The notes under the pieces were generated by a model that saw only the letters and a program-made list of their open reading frames with translations, was not told where the DNA came from and ran no database searches. Below are positions 4,209 to 53,287 of a stretch of 64,000 nt of DNA, one piece after another. Origin of the DNA: an uncultured SAR86 cluster bacterium (GTDB lineage Bacteria > Pseudomonadota > Gammaproteobacteria > Magnimaribacterales > AG-339-G14); assembly GCA_902616715.1 (NCBI GenBank), contig CACMTR010000004.1:28-64027 (forward strand), written 5' to 3'. Within the stretch, counting starts at the first letter, position 1, and each line of letters opens with the position of its first letter. The position numbers were made by a program, and so were the translations under genes.

Positions 4209-5266
4209 ACTCTTAAAATATTTCCATTAAGAATTTTATCTATCTCATCTTCTGTGTAACCTCTTAAAAGAAGTTCTTCGATTAAGTTAGGAAATTTTGA
4301 GACATCATCTATGTCTTCAGGTAAAGGCACTTCTCCATCGAAGTCCGAACCTAAGCCAACATGATCAATACCAACTAGATTTTTTACATGGTCTATATTG
4401 TCAACCACATTCTTTACTGTAACTTTCATATCTGGATTTGATTTTCTATCAGCAACAAAGTCAGATCCAAAACAAATTTGAATGACGCCATTATTCTTTG
4501 CCAAAGCTATCAACATTTCATCGGAGACATTTCTCTCCCATCCAGGAGTGAAGTGTCTTAAAGAACTATGAGTAGCCAGGACAGGCGCTTCGCTAATCTC
4601 TAACACTTTCATAAAAGCTTTATCTGACACATGACTGATATCTATCATTACTCCCTGTTTGTTCATTTCTTTCACCACCTCGAACCCAAAAGGGCTTAGT
4701 CCATCTTTCCACCTTTTATTTTCGTCATAAGAACTGTCGGATATGTGATTGCTCTTAGCGTGAGCTAAAGTAATATAATTCACTCCTAAATCAGCGAAAT
4801 ATTTTATATTTTCAAGCTTGCCTTCAATTGGGGCTCCGTTTTCAATTCCGTAGGCTATTCCTACCAAGTTTTTATTTTCCTCTAAAACTTTTATATCGGA
4901 AGGGTCATTAATAAAAGTAAATTTTTCAGGATTGTCTTTAATGATCTTATTCATCATTCCAATTAATTCGACAGCTAAATTGAATGAAGTACCTTCTGTT
5001 TCGGTTCTGGCAGGAATAAAAATTGCAAAGAAAGGAAGATTCAAGCCACCTTCAATTGCTCTAGGGTAGTCAAAGTGATAAGAAGTATTTTTTGTGATGT
5101 CATCACTGGAGCCAGTATTATTCTTTTGACGCCAAATTTGGAAGGGGGTATCGATATGAGAGTCGATAATTATTTTTTCTTTACTAAAATCTTTCGCCTT
5201 TTGACTTAAGTCCTCTGAACAAGAAGTTAATACAACGAAAAATAAAATTAGGTAAATTTTAAACAT
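4175..5266 (-). CDS. membrane dipeptidase (peptidase M19, renal-dipeptidase family), lipoprotein
   Basis: DSHIDTP metal-binding start, HSS...H and GSDFDG motifs of M19. Signal peptide with lipobox LTSC. Confidence 0.85.
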   Translation of the reverse strand: MFKIYLILFFVVLTSCSEDLSQKAKDFSKEKIIIDSHIDTPFQIWRQKNNTGSSDDITKNTSYHFDYPRAIEGGLNLPFFAIFIPARTETEGTSFNLAVELIGMMNKIIKDNPEKFTFINDPSDIKVLEENKNLVGIAYGIENGAPIEGKLENIKYFADLGVNYITLAHAKSNHISDSSYDENKRWKDGLSPFGFEVVKEMNKQGVMIDISHVSDKAFMKVLEISEAPVLATHSSLRHFTPGWERNVSDEMLIALAKNNGVIQICFGSDFVADRKSNPDMKVTVKNVVDNIDHVKNLVGIDHVGLGSDFDGEVPLPEDIDDVSKFPNLIEELLLRGYTEDEIDKILNGNILRVWKAVRAFAKK

Positions 5267-5322
5267 GTTTTATCTTTTAAATTTTTTTAAATATATCAGA
5301 AAATGCATTTTATTAAGAACAG

Positions 5323-6681
5323 CTAAAAAATAATTTTTGGCAAATAAGTAGCCAAGAAAGGAAAATATGCAACTAAGCATAAAACAAAAATTTGAATAAC
5401 GATAAACGGAAGAACTCCTTGATACATCGTTTCAGTTTTAATTTGTTCTGGAGTGACACTTCTGAGATAGAAAAGTGCGAATCCAAATGGCGGCGTTAAA
5501 AAAGACGTTTGTAAATTTATGGCCAACATAACACCTAACCACAATGGGTCAGCACCCATTGCCATCAAAATCGGCCCAACTATTGGCACAACTATAAAAG
5601 TTATTTCAATGAAATCTAAAATAAATCCTAGAATAAAAACTAACAGCATAACTAAGACCATAGAACCAAATAATCCACCAGGAATTTTGTTAAAAATATC
5701 GGTAATGAGTTCTTCTCCTCCTAAACCTCTAAAAACTAGAGAAAAAATAGATGCACCTATTAGAATTAAAAAAACCATTGATGAGATAAAAGCACTCTGT
5801 TTTGTGGTTTCAGAGAGGATTTTTAGGTTTAACTTTTTATGGAGTAAAGCTATTAATATAGCTCCAAGAGCTCCAATCCCTGCAGCTTCCGTAGGCGAGG
5901 CAACTCCGAAAATTATTGATCCTAAAACGGCAAAAATAAGAAAGAAAGGAGGTGCTAGTGTTGAAATGAGTTTAATGAAGCTTTCTTCTCTCGAATCATT
6001 AGTTGAAATAATATCTTCCTTCCTTAAATTAAAAATAAAATATAAACCATAAATAATTACCAAAATTAACCCAGGCACAATCGCAGCCATAAATAAATCG
6101 CCGACAGAAAGAGACTTGGCAACATAATTGCCAATTTTAAGTTGAGATTGTTGGTATGCTGTAGCTAATACGTCTCCCAGTATAACTAAAGCAATTGAAG
6201 GAGGGATAATTTGACCAAGAGTGCCAGTTGCAGCAATTAATCCGGTTGATATTTTTTCTGAGTAGCCTCTTTGCAACATTGCAGGCAAAGATATTAATCC
6301 CATGGCAATAACAGTAGCCCCAACTATTCCAGTGCTAGCCGCAAGTAGCGCCCCAACAAACAGAATCGATATGCCTAATCCACTTTTGTATTTACTGAAT
6401 AGTTTCGACATTGAATTTAACAATAGTTCTGCGACTTTGGATTTTTCTAAAATTACCCCCATGAAAATGAATAGGGGAACAGCTACTAATGTTGCGTTCG
6501 TCATTATTCCGTAAAGTCTGTTAGGGATTGTTTCTAGAAGGGTAAGGTCAAATAGTCCAAAAATACTAATAAAAAGAGCAAAAAGAATTGAAACTCCCCC
6601 AAGAGTAAATGCAACTGGAAAGCCTATGAGAAGACTGAGACAAATTACAAAAAATAACAGCAGAGGTAAAAATTCAATCAT
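5323..6681 (-). CDS. dctM: TRAP transporter large permease subunit
   Basis: 452 aa, polytopic, typical DctM length and Gly/Ile-rich TM pattern. 8-nt overlap with dctQ. Confidence 0.9.
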   Translation of the reverse strand: MIEFLPLLLFFVICLSLLIGFPVAFTLGGVSILFALFISIFGLFDLTLLETIPNRLYGIMTNATLVAVPLFIFMGVILEKSKVAELLLNSMSKLFSKYKSGLGISILFVGALLAASTGIVGATVIAMGLISLPAMLQRGYSEKISTGLIAATGTLGQIIPPSIALVILGDVLATAYQQSQLKIGNYVAKSLSVGDLFMAAIVPGLILVIIYGLYFIFNLRKEDIISTNDSREESFIKLISTLAPPFFLIFAVLGSIIFGVASPTEAAGIGALGAILIALLHKKLNLKILSETTKQSAFISSMVFLILIGASIFSLVFRGLGGEELITDIFNKIPGGLFGSMVLVMLLVFILGFILDFIEITFIVVPIVGPILMAMGADPLWLGVMLAINLQTSFLTPPFGFALFYLRSVTPEQIKTETMYQGVLPFIVIQIFVLCLVAYFPFLATYLPKIIF

Positions 6682-49269: not shown

Positions 49270-49318
49270 TGCCCAGAGGCGGGATCGAACCACCGACATA
49301 AGGATTTTTAGTCCTCTG
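49270..49318 (-). repeat. truncated duplicate of the tRNA-Phe 3' portion (discriminator to anticodon stem); att-like direct repeat
   Basis: 49270-49318 aligns to 51135-51183 in the same orientation at 46/49 identities, including a 29-nt perfect run at 49270-49298. There is no 5' acceptor arm, so it is not a functional tRNA. Confidence 0.8.
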
Positions 49319-49446
49319 TTCATAAGTCTTAATCCCTTTAAAGAATTACCTTTCAGAAAATCTGTGTGCTTACCTGTGTGCATGAATGTGATACAAACTC
49401 CTAAAACATTGATATAAAGAGGTTGCGCATGAAAGCATCAATTTTT

Positions 49447-49707
49447 TTATCTTTTAAGGGTTTTTAATATTTCCTCAACCTTATTGTCAAAACCCTTCTC
49501 ATCGTTTAGTACTTCTTGAATACATTCCTTCATATGTTTTTTTAATATCTTTCCTTCAATACTTGTAAGAGCATTTTTAACTGCCTTGATTTGATTAAGT
49601 ATATCAATGCAATACTTTTCCTCATCAATCATGTTAGCAATTCCACGAACCTGTCCCTCAATTCTATTAAGACTAGGAATTTCTTCTTTATGGCATGGAT
49701 TTTTCAT
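49447..49707 (-). CDS. csoR: CsoR-family metal-sensing transcriptional repressor (Cu(I)-type signature)
   Basis: 86 aa, RIEGQVRGI motif, C33/H58/C62 with the 25- and 4-residue spacing of the x-C-H-C Cu(I) site. ATGA overlap with the upstream gene. Confidence 0.88.
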   Translation of the reverse strand: MKNPCHKEEIPSLNRIEGQVRGIANMIDEEKYCIDILNQIKAVKNALTSIEGKILKKHMKECIQEVLNDEKGFDNKVEEILKTLKR

Positions 49708-50069
49708 ATTAATTTAGGAATTAAATAAGTAAATATTGTAGCAAAAATAAACAATACAACTGAAATGTAATAAACGTATCTAGATTTTTTTCTAGTTTGC
49801 ATACATAACTTACCTAACTCAGGATCTGTGGGGCAAGGCATATAATAAGTTTTATAATTCACATATCCCGCAAAAATGATCATCACTAAAGCAAACGTTG
49901 TTATGGATAACTTATATTGAGATAAGACAATTAAAAAAGGAAAGACTGTTATTAAACTTGCAAAAGAAGCACCCGCGCCAATTGCAATAAATAATGAAGG
50001 AAGTGCACAACATATTAAGGTTGATGACGAGGCAAACAAGGATAAAAAGTTTGCAGATTTATCTTGCAT
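49704..50069 (-). CDS. MerT/MerC-like cysteine-pair membrane protein (putative metal transporter)
   Basis: 121 aa, 3-4 hydrophobic segments, vicinal CC in the first TM (LICCALPS), second pair CPTDPELGKLC. Confidence 0.5.
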   Translation of the reverse strand: MQDKSANFLSLFASSSTLICCALPSLFIAIGAGASFASLITVFPFLIVLSQYKLSITTFALVMIIFAGYVNYKTYYMPCPTDPELGKLCMQTRKKSRYVYYISVVLFIFATIFTYLIPKLI

Positions 50070-50074
50070 AATTT

Positions 50075-50476
50075 TTAAAGATCAATAACCTGCATATCAA
50101 TTGCATTTTGTCCGTTCATAAGAATTTTATCCCTGATGTCTTCAAAGATTATTTCATGAGCAACATTGTATGCAATCAAAACCTTTCCTTTGCTTAGATC
50201 AACATCTATTTTTTTAACATTAATGTCTTTTTTAAAAATTTTTTCAATACCTCTAGCACAGAAATCACACACCATACCTTGAACATTTACGATTGCAATT
50301 TGGGTATCTTTAAGATCCATAATGAATTTATCAAATCTCTCAGGATCAACTTCTAATTTCTTCCCATCTACAAATTTTTCATGTACATGTTCTTCATGAG
50401 TATGATGCATGCCGTCATGAGGAGTTTCTCCCCATGCCATTGAAGTAAAAATAAGAATTAATAATATGTTTTTCAT
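50075..50476 (-). CDS. exported heavy-metal-associated (HMA) domain protein with His/Met-rich N-terminal segment
   Basis: Signal peptide ...SMAWG, HDGMHHTHEEHVHE, HMA motif GMVCDFC within a beta-alpha-beta-beta-alpha-beta pattern. AGGAGG SD. Confidence 0.8.
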   Translation of the reverse strand: MKNILLILIFTSMAWGETPHDGMHHTHEEHVHEKFVDGKKLEVDPERFDKFIMDLKDTQIAIVNVQGMVCDFCARGIEKIFKKDINVKKIDVDLSKGKVLIAYNVAHEIIFEDIRDKILMNGQNAIDMQVIDL

Positions 50477-50485
50477 ATTTTCCTC

Positions 50486-51085
50486 CTACAATCTATACAT
50501 TAGATGAACATCCCATTCAGTTTTTTTGCTATAACCAAATTCCATAAGAACATTTCCTTTAAAAAATTTTAATACAGGGTAAGTTGACCAACTATTCTTA
50601 AGAGAATTTTCTTTTGCCTTAATCATTATCCATGTGTGCAAGTCGCCATAATCACCAACATAGGGCGCTACTCCTATTTGATAGTATTGTTCAAAATAGT
50701 CTTGAATTTTTCTTTTAGTTTCATTTAATCCAAAACCAATAAATAATCTTCTTGTTTCCCAATCTCCATGTAAACCGTAAAAAAATTCATCAAAACCTTT
50801 TGAACTAATACCAGATTGAAAATACAAATTTCTTTGAGAATTTTCAGTATTTTTTCTATTCAATAAGTATGTATATCTAAGAAATGAATAATTATCATTA
50901 AAATAATCGTTTCTTATAACTTCAATCCCAATCGAGTATTTATAGGATGGCGAATAATGGTAGTAGATAGAATTTTTTATATTATCTGAAAATGCCATTA
51001 TGGTTGAACCTCCTGTGTAAGATATAGGTCTAGCATCAAGTCCAAGCGACATAACAGACAAGAGACAAATAATTCTTATACCCAT
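50486..51085 (-). CDS. exported protein, possible small outer-membrane beta-barrel; function unknown
   Basis: Signal peptide (…LGLDA/RP), Tyr/Phe-rich alternating hydrophobicity. First gene of the cassette, with no SD before the ATG. Confidence 0.4.
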   Translation of the reverse strand: MGIRIICLLSVMSLGLDARPISYTGGSTIMAFSDNIKNSIYYHYSPSYKYSIGIEVIRNDYFNDNYSFLRYTYLLNRKNTENSQRNLYFQSGISSKGFDEFFYGLHGDWETRRLFIGFGLNETKRKIQDYFEQYYQIGVAPYVGDYGDLHTWIMIKAKENSLKNSWSTYPVLKFFKGNVLMEFGYSKKTEWDVHLMYRL

Positions 51086-51094
51086 GGGGGGTAT
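51078..51094 (-). promoter_or_regulatory. candidate CsoR operator (G/C-tract pseudo-palindrome) over the start codon of the first cassette gene
   Basis: Plus strand ATACCC-ATG-GGGGGTAT, with outer inverted repeat ATACCC/GGGTAT and a G6 tract in otherwise AT-rich DNA. The minus strand reads TAAAAT(-10-like)-ACCCCCC-ATG-GGTAT. Confidence 0.6.
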
Positions 51095-51131
51095 TTTACT
51101 ATTATTTTTTTAATATAAAAGATTATTTTGT

Positions 51132-51207
51132 TGGTGCCCAGAGGCGGGATCGAACCACCGACACAAGGATTTTCAGTCCTTTGCTCTACCAACTGAGCTA
51201 TCTGGGC
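51132..51207 (-). tRNA. tRNA-Phe: tRNA-Phe (anticodon GAA), CCA encoded
   Basis: The reverse complement folds by hand into a cloverleaf: acceptor GCCCAGA/TCTGGGC, D stem GCTC/GAGC, anticodon stem AAGGA/TCCTT with loop CTGAAAA, T arm GGTGG-TTCGATC-CCGCC, then ACCA. Confidence 0.95.
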
Positions 51208-51292: not shown

Positions 51293-53287
51293 ATGACGGG
51301 AGAAAAGCTTAAATGGGGTTTAATAGCTAATGGTGCTATAGCGAATGCTTTTGCTAACTCTATTAAGAATTCTAAAACTTCGGAGCTCAAATCGGTATTT
51401 GGACGCAATAAATCTAAAGTAGAAGCCTTTGCCAAAAAACATAAAATAATTTCTTTCAATGATCTCGATAGTTTTTTAGATAGTGATTTAGATGCAGTGT
51501 ATATCGCAACTCCTCATGATTCGCATTTTTATTATTCTCTTAAATGCGTTCGTCAAAATCTTCACGTGCTGTGTGAAAAACCTTTAACCATAAATTCTTC
51601 TGAATCAATGATTCTGATAAATGAAGCCCAAAAGAGAAATGTTTTTTTAATGGAGGCATTTATGTACAGATGTCACCCTCAAACATTTAAGGTTTTAGAA
51701 TTAATAGAAAAACATTTTTTAAATAAGGAAGTAAAAATGCAAAGTTCTTTTGGCTTTGCAGCAAATGTATCAAAAGAACATAGGCTGAGAAATCCTTATT
51801 TAGCAGGCGGGGCAATTCTCGATGTAGGTTGTTATCCTCTTTCGATGGTGCGATTAATATCTGGTAGGTTAAAGAATTTACCTTTCGCAGATCCTTTAGA
51901 AATAGTTGTGGAGGGCGAGTTAGATGAAACAGGAGTGGATGCTAAGTCTACTGCGAAATTAAATTTTTCTGATGGCATTTCTGCCGAAATTCAGACCGCT
52001 ATTCAAGAGCAGTACAAAAACAATCTTATTGTGGAAGCAGATAATTTAAGACTTGAAATCCCGGATCCTTGGCACTGCGGTCAATTTAACAATGGAAAGT
52101 CTTTAATTAAGTTTTCAGATAAAGGTAAAGACGGATTTTTTGAAATTACAGATGAAGTTGGTTTGTTTACAAGAGAAATAGATGAAGCAGCAAATTGCAT
52201 TAAAGAAAATAAATTTGAGTCACCATTGATGTCGCATAAAGATACTTTAGGAAATATTTTATGGTTGGAAAAATGGTATTCGAAACTTGGAATAAAATTT
52301 CCGAGTAATGAAATAAAGAATTCGGCTATCAGAGGTTTAGATTTTAATTTGAAATCAAATAAGGATCATAAATTATTTTCTATTTCAGGAAAGTTAGCTC
52401 CAAGGATTGTTTTTGGATGTGATAATCAAATATCAGAACTACATGCATTTTCTATGTTTGAGCATTTCTATCAGCAGGGCGGAAGAATATTTGATACGGC
52501 ATATATTTACAACAATGGTCTTTCCGACGGATACCTTGGCGCATGGATAAACGAGCGTAATCTAAGGGATGAAATAGTAATTTTAGGAAAGGGAGCACAC
52601 ACACCTGACTGTGAGCCAGAAAATATAAAACCACAATTAGAAGAATCTCTGAATCGCATGAATTTAGATAGGTTAGATATATATTGTTTGCATAGAGATA
52701 ATCCAGAGATCCCTGTTGAAGAGTTCATTGATGAGTTGAATAAGTTGCGATCATCTGGTCTTTTTACATTATTCGGAGCTTCTAATTGGACTTTGGAAAG
52801 ATTTAGGAAAGCAAACGAATATGCTACTAAAAATAATAAGGAAGGATTTAAAGTATTAAGTAACAACTTCAGTTTAGCAAAAATGAATAAACCAGTTTGG
52901 CCTGGATGTGTGAGTTGTGATGAAAAATATTTAGATTATTTAGTATCAAATAATATCTATTTACTTCCTTGGTCCAGCCAAGCCAGAGGTTTTTTTGTTC
53001 AACAAGATTTATTCCCAAAATTTATTCACGGAGCAAATCCAACTTTAGAGGAAGAAATTAGAGTATGGCATAGTAAAGACAATTTAGATCGAAGAAAAAG
53101 ATGTTTTGAGTTAGCTGAGAAGTTGAACTGTAGCCCTATAGAGCTAGCTTTGGCATATGTTATTAATCGAAACGAAAATATATTTCCCTTGGTAGGGCCA
53201 AGAAACTTGTTTGAATCTGAAAGTTGTATGCAAGCTTTAAGAATTAATCTTACTCAAGAGCAAGTACATTTTCTCATGGAAGGGTAA
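51293..53287 (+). CDS. two-domain fusion: Gfo/Idh/MocA-family oxidoreductase (N) + aldo/keto reductase (C)
   Basis: N-half: GLIANGAIANAF Rossmann motif and LCEKPL motif. C-half: FDTAYIY, ILGKG, LDIYCLHRDNP, GASNW (AKR Asp/Tyr/Lys/His set). Single uninterrupted 664-codon ORF. Confidence 0.85.
   Translation: MTGEKLKWGLIANGAIANAFANSIKNSKTSELKSVFGRNKSKVEAFAKKHKIISFNDLDSFLDSDLDAVYIATPHDSHFYYSLKCVRQNLHVLCEKPLTINSSESMILINEAQKRNVFLMEAFMYRCHPQTFKVLELIEKHFLNKEVKMQSSFGFAANVSKEHRLRNPYLAGGAILDVGCYPLSMVRLISGRLKNLPFADPLEIVVEGELDETGVDAKSTAKLNFSDGISAEIQTAIQEQYKNNLIVEADNLRLEIPDPWHCGQFNNGKSLIKFSDKGKDGFFEITDEVGLFTREIDEAANCIKENKFESPLMSHKDTLGNILWLEKWYSKLGIKFPSNEIKNSAIRGLDFNLKSNKDHKLFSISGKLAPRIVFGCDNQISELHAFSMFEHFYQQGGRIFDTAYIYNNGLSDGYLGAWINERNLRDEIVILGKGAHTPDCEPENIKPQLEESLNRMNLDRLDIYCLHRDNPEIPVEEFIDELNKLRSSGLFTLFGASNWTLERFRKANEYATKNNKEGFKVLSNNFSLAKMNKPVWPGCVSCDEKYLDYLVSNNIYLLPWSSQARGFFVQQDLFPKFIHGANPTLEEEIRVWHSKDNLDRRKRCFELAEKLNCSPIELALAYVINRNENIFPLVGPRNLFESESCMQALRINLTQEQVHFLMEG

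Follow-up and report, generated by a model that had tools for sequence, protein, structure and literature searches.

The question raised by this locus was how a bacterium would handle copper with a set of genes that encodes none of the usual copper-handling proteins. The locus lies in a 64,000-nucleotide (nt) stretch of DNA from an uncultured SAR86 cluster bacterium (contig CACMTR010000004.1), which is hereafter called the window. It was composed of four genes on the minus strand (51085-49447), for a small outer-membrane barrel-like protein, a putatively exported HMA-domain protein, a MerT-like membrane protein, and a CsoR-family repressor. The copper handling known from Gram-negative bacteria depends on P-type ATPases, resistance-nodulation-division (RND) pumps, multicopper oxidases, and periplasmic sponges. 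The module contained none of these four classes, yet it was placed under a textbook Cu(I) switch. The first-pass annotation of the window had proposed that an uptake-type pair and an envelope protein under CsoR control, with neither pump nor reductase, formed an undescribed module, and each inferred element of that proposal held up in the analysis reported here. No description of the module was found in the published literature, where combinations of CsoR, MerT, and MerP, MerT-like proteins with copper, and SAR86 with copper genes were searched. CsoR, the HMA domain, and a distant MerT are known kinds of protein, and the envelope trio under CsoR, lacking both pump and sink and carried in a tRNA-flanked cassette, appears to be a new combination.

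Translation of the open reading frames (ORFs) reproduced the set as earlier described, with four same-strand genes, gaps of 9 and 5 nt, an ATGA overlap, and all quoted motifs in place. The first gene (50486..51085, minus strand) encoded a 199-residue exported protein, which was predicted to be an outer-membrane β-barrel from its ORF, AlphaFold2, and Foldseek. After 9 nt (50477-50485) it was followed by the gene of a 133-residue, putatively exported protein (50075..50476, minus strand) with a Pfam HMA domain, a CxxC site, and a His/Met-rich tail. A gap of 5 nt (50070-50074) separated the latter from the gene of a 121-residue MerT-like inner-membrane protein with three transmembrane helices (49704..50069, minus strand), which was assigned from a sub-threshold Pfam MerT match, AlphaFold2, and hydropathy. 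The last gene (49447..49707, minus strand) encoded an 86-residue CsoR-family repressor, which was identified by Pfam and by sequence matches in the Protein Data Bank (PDB). The ATGA overlap at 49704-49707 joined the MerT-like gene and csoR, and through it csoR is predicted to be translationally coupled to the MerT-like gene.

The 86-residue protein matched the CsoR family Trns_repr_metal (PF02583) with 93.1 bits against a cut-off of 22.8. Its best matches were Cu(I)-sensing CsoRs and RicR, led in the PDB by 4ADZ (3e-15) and 4M1P from S. lividans and Geobacillus, and InrS was also matched in the PDB (4e-10). Ligand invariance was counted over 41-67 unique homologues, protein by protein. Residues Y32, C33, H58, and C62 of CsoR were invariant among 53 unique homologues, and E78 was present in the window protein, 20 residues after H58. 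Residues Y32 and E78 are presumably the second-shell counterparts of Y35 and E81 in M. tuberculosis CsoR. The motif x-C-H-C marks Cu(I)-sensing CsoRs (PMC11672702), and the ligand motif of the window protein read x-C-H-C with residues C33, H58, and C62. Residue His6 was also invariant; the W position, calculated by spacing (X minus 32), fell on residue 1 and not on His6.

The type-2 CsoR operator, TAC-X9-GTA with G/C tracts, has been defined experimentally in S. lividans, including ATACCCCCTAGGGGTA (PMC3902906). A motif match to this definition, ATACCCCCCATGGGTAT, was located on the minus strand at 51094..51078, and it was the sole perfect match in the 64-kb window. The operator had the TAC-X9-GTA form with C/G tracts, which is of the CsoR type and not of the RcnR TACT/AGTA type. 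Reading of the surrounding sequence placed a -10-like hexamer, TAAAAT, at 51093..51098 on the minus strand. The operator began with the last T of this hexamer and also overlapped the barrel ATG. The ATG was located 8 nt after the hexamer and no Shine-Dalgarno sequence was present, so the barrel mRNA is probably leaderless. Gene callers elsewhere stretched the barrel ORF upstream to 222-225 residues. Because 87 of 88 related loci had the operator in this place, the designation of the operon as CsoR-governed is well supported in silico. The Cu(I)-type CsoR with C33, H58, and C62, as it was originally named, was thus recovered with a score far above the cut-off, invariant ligands, and a canonical operator on its own promoter.

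The HMA domain of the 133-residue protein scored 32.2 bits against the Pfam cut-off of 24.8 (PF00403). The motif GMVCDFC corresponded to residues 67-73, and the His/Met-rich segment HDGMHHTHEEHVHE corresponded to residues 20-33, in agreement with the exported HMA protein with a His/Met segment that had been described. The N-terminus, MKNILLILIFTSMAWG before E, reads as a Sec signal peptide, and the mature protein would begin with the His/Met-rich tail. Among 41 unique homologues, the CDFC motif, H30, and H32 were invariant, and H20 and H27 were nearly so. The best PDB sequence matches were the metal-binding domains of Cu-ATPases and CopZ. Against NCBIfam, the protein scored 36.8 for CopZ_Bs (cut-off 91) and 16 for MerP (cut-off 92.55), and neither equivalog level was reached. 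By these matches, the HMA protein is nearer to the Cu-ATPase domains and CopZ than to MerP.

In the 121-residue protein, the motif LICCALPS occupied residues 18-25 and the motif CPTDPELGKLC occupied residues 79-89. Its AlphaFold2 model, with a predicted local distance difference test (pLDDT) score of 78, and its hydropathy placed helices at residues 2-30, 53-75, and 83-120, which contained three transmembrane helices (TM1 to TM3). TM1 (residues 2-30) held the vicinal pair C20/C21, and two short helices preceded TM2 (residues 53-75). The basic loop between TM2 and TM3, MPCPTDPELGKLCMQTRKKSR, carried C79 and C89, and the helix of residues 83-120 opened with C89 and contained TM3. This loop was taken as cytoplasmic because of the positive-inside rule. 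Residues C20, C21, P24, C79, P80, and C89 were invariant from SAR86 to Alphaproteobacteria.

The Pfam MerT match (PF02411) spanned profile positions 16-113 of 116 with 24.8 bits against a cut-off of 32.9, and the NCBIfam MerT model NF010314 gave 23.3 bits against 150. A precomputed PF02411 match was present on some close homologues. The family contained more than 7,800 sequences at E <= 0.001. A tblastn search of 72,556 plasmids (E < 1e-3) retrieved hypothetical proteins of Variovorax and Vibrio only, and no MerT of a mer operon was retrieved. Neither Foldseek with the model nor phmmer against the PDB gave a meaningful match; we know of no solved MerT structure, which would account for the empty Foldseek result. 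Of the earlier description, the MerT-like topology stood, with three transmembrane helices and with Cys pairs both in TM1 (CC) and in the loop, whereas membership in MerT proper did not, since the scores were below the curated cut-offs. The protein is therefore called MerT-like here, having the layout of MerT at what appears to be a considerable sequence distance from the classical proteins.

The 199-residue protein gave zero matches in Pfam, NCBIfam, and PHROGs, and the same was true of all 85 diverse members of its family. The alignment of these 85 sequences was used for the family-level searches and for the AlphaFold2 model. The family profile matched nothing among PDB sequences. It retrieved 549 representatives at E <= 0.001 from a library clustered at 50% identity, and the members with a source name were all labelled 'hypothetical protein'. 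With neither a Pfam or NCBIfam model nor a named member among the sequences seen, the family is undescribed. The model was obtained with a pLDDT of 91.9 and a predicted template modelling score (pTM) of 0.82, and consisted of a signal-peptide helix followed by 12 β-strands. Its best Foldseek matches in the PDB (E ~1e-4) were exclusively outer-membrane barrels, several of them 12-stranded, and included the β-domains of intimin and invasin, KdgM, a designed 12-stranded barrel, and FapF. The template modelling scores (TM-scores) were about 0.5-0.6, with a best target-normalised value of ~0.6, and PcoB was absent from the 50 matches listed. The protein is accordingly predicted to form a closed 12-stranded outer-membrane β-barrel behind a signal peptide, which agrees with the small barrel outside any family that had been suspected from its alternating hydrophobicity. 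The family consensus ended in ...RF, a typical outer-membrane β-signal, and the window protein ended in ...MYRL. Residues R77, N86, D108, E110, G138, and W152 were invariant, and conserved residues of the lumen type were Arg, Asn, Gln, Asp, and Glu.

The association of the four genes was not confined to the window. Of the loci anchored on the barrel gene, 76 extended for 1,150 nt or more downstream of it, and 74 of these carried the HMA, MerT-like, and CsoR genes in the same order, at barrel identities of 60%-92%, and the gene neighbourhoods thus bore out the set as first delineated. The two exceptions were a truncated copy (L024) and a barrel-only copy (L029). In the former (L024:951-1391), the degraded MerT-like gene broke off after ~51 residues and continued into an unrelated C-terminus, and there was no csoR. 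The ratio of nonsynonymous to synonymous substitution rates (dN/dS) was 0.10-0.34 for all four genes, which indicates purifying selection. Because the order was shared by 74 of 76 loci and the dN/dS values were low, the four-gene arrangement is far beyond chance. In a separate observation, a csoR fragment (residues 1-33) was followed by a complete, divergent csoR with 65% identity at L014:9378-9848, and the fragment looks like the scar of an allele replacement by recombination.

The barrel, HMA, and MerT-like trio persisted without CsoR in other lineages at ~30% barrel identity (L016, L097, L099, and L101). The gene order in L016 was HMA, MerT-like, and barrel. In alphaproteobacterial metagenome-assembled genomes (MAGs), an extra exported Cys/His protein was followed by the barrel, a 98-residue HMA protein without the His-rich tail, and the MerT-like protein. 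This extra protein of 132-143 residues (L097:4512-4943 and L099:4561-4959) contained the pattern …MPCH…HC[ED]G[ML]C[FL]CL…, gave a weak match to DUF6153, and may be a further metal-binding partner. At L101:2615-3700 and L102:2905-3990 (also P0205), a three-Cys MerR-family domain was fused to the barrel domain in one ORF, the HMA and MerT-like genes followed, and arsenic-resistance genes adjoined. The two domains were joined by a signal-peptide-like segment, …KKKGRFGKSLAILAVFFLMPFTARA, before NPIPY. A gene-calling artefact was considered and rejected, as the ORF of L101 was uninterrupted and had no ATG, GTG, or TTG start ahead of the signal-like segment. The fusion appears real, and cleavage at the internal signal sequence is one possibility.

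The motifs G[ML]VC[DA]FCA of the HMA protein and CCALP and CPxDP...C of the MerT-like protein recurred in most of these lineages, and the loop of L016 read CPVGK...C. Since these motifs recurred in most of them, the conserved core would be the trio, and the regulator would be its variable part. The accompanying regulators were either CsoR or of the three-Cys MerR type, each of which is a metal-excess sensor. In a very abundant SAR86 lineage (L113-L120; e.g. L114:5626-6294), a fifth gene overlapped the csoR stop codon. Its product was a PepSY_TM-like protein of 222 residues with two transmembrane helices (27.6 bits against a cut-off of 28.8). Genes for DUF2141 and DUF2306 followed the fifth gene, and the region ended at tRNA-Ile in L115 and L119.

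A partner that would supply the missing pump or sink was looked for around the cassette. The P-type ATPase motif DKTGT had zero occurrences in the window and 96 related loci (735 kb in all), and no pump, oxidase, or reductase was present among the Pfam-annotated neighbours in at least five genomic contexts. No MerA-type oxidoreductase was present in the Pfam-annotated neighbourhoods either. The statement that the unit has no P-type ATPase, pump, oxidase, or reductase was therefore upheld, and the cassette did not behave as a satellite of a copA or cus locus in its relatives.

The four genes also appear to form a tRNA-bounded mobile cassette, a feature that was overlooked in the first-pass annotation. 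The barrel gene was preceded, at a distance of 46 nt, by a tRNA-Phe(GAA) gene (51132..51207, minus strand; ARAGORN, Rfam tRNA 70 bits), and the last 52 nt of this tRNA gene recurred just past csoR. In a repeat search, the proximal att-like repeat corresponded to the 3' 52 nt of the tRNA gene (51186..51135, minus strand) and the distal att-like repeat to a partial copy of that end (49270..49321, minus strand), with 48 of 52 positions identical and a spacing of 1865 nt. A non-coding spacer of 125 nt (49322..49446, minus strand) separated the csoR stop codon from the distal repeat. The 25-nt core of the repeat occurred exactly twice in the window, where 0 occurrences were expected. The same layout of tRNA-Phe and partial copy was found in L009, L010, L012, L013, L017-19, L033-37, and L103-107. 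Three repeat copies were present in L009, L010, L012, L018, L033-36, and L105-107, and the cargo of the slot nearest to the tRNA differed among them. The tandem order elsewhere in SAR86 was tRNA-Phe, variable cargo, partial copy, copper cassette, partial copy, and pip (the prolyl aminopeptidase gene). In the arrays with an extra slot, the intact tRNA ended in a variant sequence at its 3' side and the 'native' end was now found in the partial copy, as is expected from integration into the 3' end of the tRNA gene.

When contigs with a 100% identical pip protein were compared, the cassette was always in the innermost slot, beside pip. Their slot nearest to the tRNA was empty or contained an MvaI/BcnI restriction-modification system, ORFs of no known kind, or a methylase, in which case the resolvase was one slot further out. 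All of the identical-pip contigs with enough upstream DNA carried the cassette; no empty tRNA-Phe site in the same species, and no presence/absence polymorphism at the locus, was seen among them.

Other contexts were also occupied. In L001, the cassette and one ORF were placed between tRNA-Ile and a 49-nt repeat of the tRNA 3' end with 98% identity. Elsewhere the cassette abutted the 3' end of glmS, or was located between a gene of the metallo-β-lactamase fold and guaA, and in the glmS and guaA contexts homology to the window extended from the -10 hexamer to the csoR stop (51098-51104 to 49442-49447). The 3' end of glmS is the classical attachment region of Tn7. At L005:7707-9552, in a SAR86 single-cell genome, the cassette abutted the 3' end of glmS and a MerC-family gene was located 2.6 kb away (L005:3026-3427), with no merA in view in that locus.

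The cassette was 92-95% identical in nucleotide sequence between species, whereas the flanking genes were just 66-82% identical. Compared with L009, the dS of the cassette was 0.14-0.23 and that of the adjacent pip gene was >1.6 or saturated. Within one species, two cassette alleles (~100% and ~94% identical) and one mosaic were present. Because of the differences in identity between cassette and flanks and the saturated dS of pip, the cassette appears to have been exchanged between SAR86 species independently of the genomic backbone. No integrase was found in or beside the cassette, nor in any slot of the arrays; the sole recombinase was a 198-residue resolvase, two slots away in L106. Copies of the cassette were found on neither viral contigs nor plasmids, no relatives of the barrel were present on viral contigs in the scan, and tblastn of the barrel against plasmids gave no match.

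Tycheposons of Prochlorococcus are units of cargo flanked by a tRNA and a partial tRNA, which occur in tandem, with newcomers next to the tRNA pushing older units inward (bioRxiv 10.1101/2020.12.28.424599). The flanks of the SAR86 cassette and the tandem arrays of partial tRNAs had the same layout. However, the host was SAR86 and neither a tyrosine nor a large serine recombinase was present in or beside the cassette, so that membership in the tycheposon family cannot be claimed.

When the module was compared with the MerP/MerT pair of Tn501 and Tn21, both contained a CxxC HMA protein, which in the module is predicted to be exported as MerP is, and a protein with three transmembrane helices and two Cys pairs, one of them vicinal and in TM1, the other in the cytoplasmic loop between TM2 and TM3. 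Induction by the toxic metal itself would also be shared. The module differed from mer in having CsoR instead of MerR, no MerA or other linked sink, and an added outer-membrane barrel. The loop Cys spacing was C-x9-C, wider than that of Tn501 MerT, and the HMA protein differed from MerP in its His/Met tail and in scoring nearer to CopZ. The CsoR operons of B. subtilis (copZA), M. tuberculosis (cso), and S. lividans (copZA) shared the x-C-H-C motif, the TAC-X9-GTA promoter operator, an HMA protein, and autoregulation with the module. In contrast to these operons, it had no P-type ATPase, its HMA protein was predicted to be exported and not cytosolic, its host was a Gram-negative gammaproteobacterium, and its cargo was an envelope trio.

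Outer-membrane β-barrels are likewise part of metal-responsive operons in PcoB/CopB and CusC; the module lacked the membrane fusion protein (MFP)/RND pump and multicopper oxidase partners of the Pco, Cop, and Cus systems. The fold of the barrel was nearest to 12-stranded barrels, to which the small channels KdgM and NanC belong, with TM-scores of about 0.5-0.6 and no sequence relation to any Pfam family or PDB chain. The nearest annotated relatives, fusions of MerT and CopZ that accompany a GDCCVxC protein (NF045683 and NF041374), also combine a MerT-like part and an HMA part with a metal-sensing regulator and without MerA. They differed in their fused parts, their MerR-type regulator, and their GDCCVxC protein, and they encode nothing from the barrel family. 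The fusion module found on Vibrio plasmids was 35% identical to the MerT-like protein, and these fusion modules appear to be uncharacterised as well. In the plasmid of Vibrio diabolicus (NZ_CP069194.1; L112), positions 4221-6356 encoded a MerR-family regulator, GDCCVxC, the MerT::HMA fusion, and a 243-residue hypothetical protein, and a Tn3 transposase adjoined. The 243-residue protein was considered as a member of the barrel family and rejected (hhalign probability 0.2%).

Computation showed what the parts are, that the operator is present, that the genes occur together, and that the cassette is mobile; which metal is handled, that one protein physically passes it to the next, and which way it flows are inferred. 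Without Cu(I), CsoR tetramers would be bound to the ATACCC-N5-GGGTAT operator, over the -10 element and the barrel start codon. Binding of cytosolic Cu(I) at C33, H58, and C62 would free CsoR from the operator, and all four genes would be transcribed. The three layers of the envelope would then be filled by the outer-membrane barrel, the periplasmic HMA protein, and the MerT-like inner-membrane protein. A soft metal, most likely Cu(I), would be handed from Cys site to Cys site by ligand exchange, as Hg(II) is by MerP and MerT. The preferred direction is outward, so that metal would be cleared from the inner membrane and periplasm onto the HMA protein and out through the barrel. A role in detoxification is suggested because the regulators that accompany the trio all sense an excess of metal, and the trio of L101, which adjoins ars genes, was counted for the same logic. 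Outward clearance is favoured because the regulators point to detoxification and because mer operons have no dedicated outer-membrane component. We therefore tentatively prefer, at somewhat below an even chance, a Cu(I)-inducible, self-regulated envelope module on a small mobile cassette, in which a relay clears metal outward. A bolder form of this proposal is doubtful, namely that the trio is a previously unrecognised energy-independent trans-envelope Cu(I) pathway (a 'Mer-type ladder') with its first dedicated outer-membrane member, which serves copper detoxification in heterotrophs that are among the most abundant of the surface ocean, and which spreads between species without an integrase, by insertion at tRNA hot spots and recombination between them.

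Several points weigh against outward clearance of copper. To our knowledge, all characterised MerT-family proteins import metal. A passive outward flow of Cu+ against the membrane potential has no known precedent, and the cassette encodes nothing that would power it; no domain for coupling to ATP or the proton-motive force was recognised in the three structural proteins. The barrel family had no conserved Cys or Met, and no mark of a Cu(I) channel was seen in its sequence. The MerT-like protein scored below the Pfam and NCBIfam cut-offs, and classical plasmid MerT genes were not retrieved with it by tblastn at E < 1e-3. The invariant His6 leaves room for a fourth ligand in CsoR, and hence for a four-coordinate site or another metal. 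Finally, the PepSY_TM-like protein of the fifth gene might be a membrane or metal reductase, which would suit uptake better.

The main rival is import of the Mer type, in which copper would enter the periplasm through the barrel, be caught there by the HMA protein, and be brought into the cytosol by the MerT-like protein, with the sink or sensor encoded elsewhere. The sink could be glutathione, a storage protein, CopA, or CsoR itself, and the benefit could be protection of the periplasm or an amplified sensitivity of CsoR, as MerT and MerP provide for MerR. Homology and topology fit the MerP/MerT uptake pair, the His/Met-rich HMA tail is suited to catching dilute copper, and the fifth gene of one lineage could turn Cu(II) to Cu(I) before uptake. 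Moreover, the mer operon is a real case of an importer that is induced by a toxic metal. However, a cytosolic sink was linked to the cassette in none of more than 100 loci from several lineages, and the outer-membrane component is one that classical mer operons do not need. Copper uptake at high cytosolic Cu(I) would be a positive feedback that should be counter-selected, yet the genes bear the mark of purifying selection. We consider import possible but rather unlikely.

It is improbable that the relay carries a soft metal other than copper, for instance Hg(II), Ag(I), or Cd(II), or that the repressor senses Ni or Co, so that copper would not be the physiological substrate. The distant trios near ars genes have three-Cys MerR regulators as in sensors of Hg, Cd, and Zn, a MerC gene was found 2.6 kb from the cassette in L005, and both the invariant His6 and the InrS match of CsoR could be read in this sense. 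On the other hand, the W position on residue 1 gives the motif x-C-H-C, the top matches of the repressor were Cu(I)-sensing CsoRs and RicR, the operator was not of the RcnR type, and the HMA domain matched Cu-ATPase domains and favoured CopZ over MerP (36.8 against 16 bits). Copper is nanomolar in seawater, and mercury is far scarcer. Periplasmic buffering without any transmembrane flux is quite improbable. The HMA protein would then be a copper sponge, as the His/Met-rich periplasmic proteins PcoE and SilE are, the MerT-like protein would keep its Cys residues reduced or anchor it, and the barrel would be structural; a cassette that encodes no energy source and a barrel lumen without soft ligands would be in keeping with this. 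The trio was nevertheless kept in Alphaproteobacteria, where the HMA protein lacks the His-rich tail, and in the MerT-like protein neither the Cys pair of TM1 nor that of the cytoplasmic loop varied, which suggests passage through the membrane. That the genes are neighbours by chance, or are left over from a decaying island and share no function, is hardly credible. Such a reading would be in line with the lack of an integrase in the cassette and with the degraded copies L024 and L029, but it is contradicted by the gene set shared by 74 of 76 loci, the operator shared by 87 of 88, the dN/dS values, the tight gene coupling, and the persistence of the trio in different classes.

Should the trio move copper, it would be a new route in bacterial metal homeostasis and would give a function to a nameless family of outer-membrane barrels. 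The module is widespread and is near-core in some species of SAR86, a dominant clade of the surface ocean. The locus would also be relevant to the way in which streamlined ocean bacteria manage copper, which is both limiting and toxic in seawater. It also indicates that SAR86 has tRNA-anchored arrays of cargo like those of Prochlorococcus.

The close relatives of the cassette were found in SAR86-cluster single-cell genomes and MAGs, and the G+C content of the window was ~33%. The tRNA-Phe locus of SAR86 was a hot spot for cargo, as seen in the slots next to the tRNA in L105, L106, L107, L009, L010, L012, and L013. The cargo included polysaccharide-modification or deacetylase-like genes, secreted FN3-like and FG-GAP proteins, an HIT/HNH pair, the MvaI/BcnI restriction-modification system, DNA methylases, and the 198-residue resolvase. 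The neighbours of the cassette in the window encoded TonB-dependent receptors, a sulfatase, a glutathione S-transferase (GST), a DSBA-like protein, a CoA-transferase, the prolyl aminopeptidase, a GFO/aldo-keto-reductase fusion, and a GH3 glycosidase, none of which is metal-related. The fusion protein (51293-53287) was composed of 664 residues, with a GFO/IDH/MocA oxidoreductase part and an aldo/keto reductase part, and its gene was kept beside the tRNA-Phe locus in SAR86.

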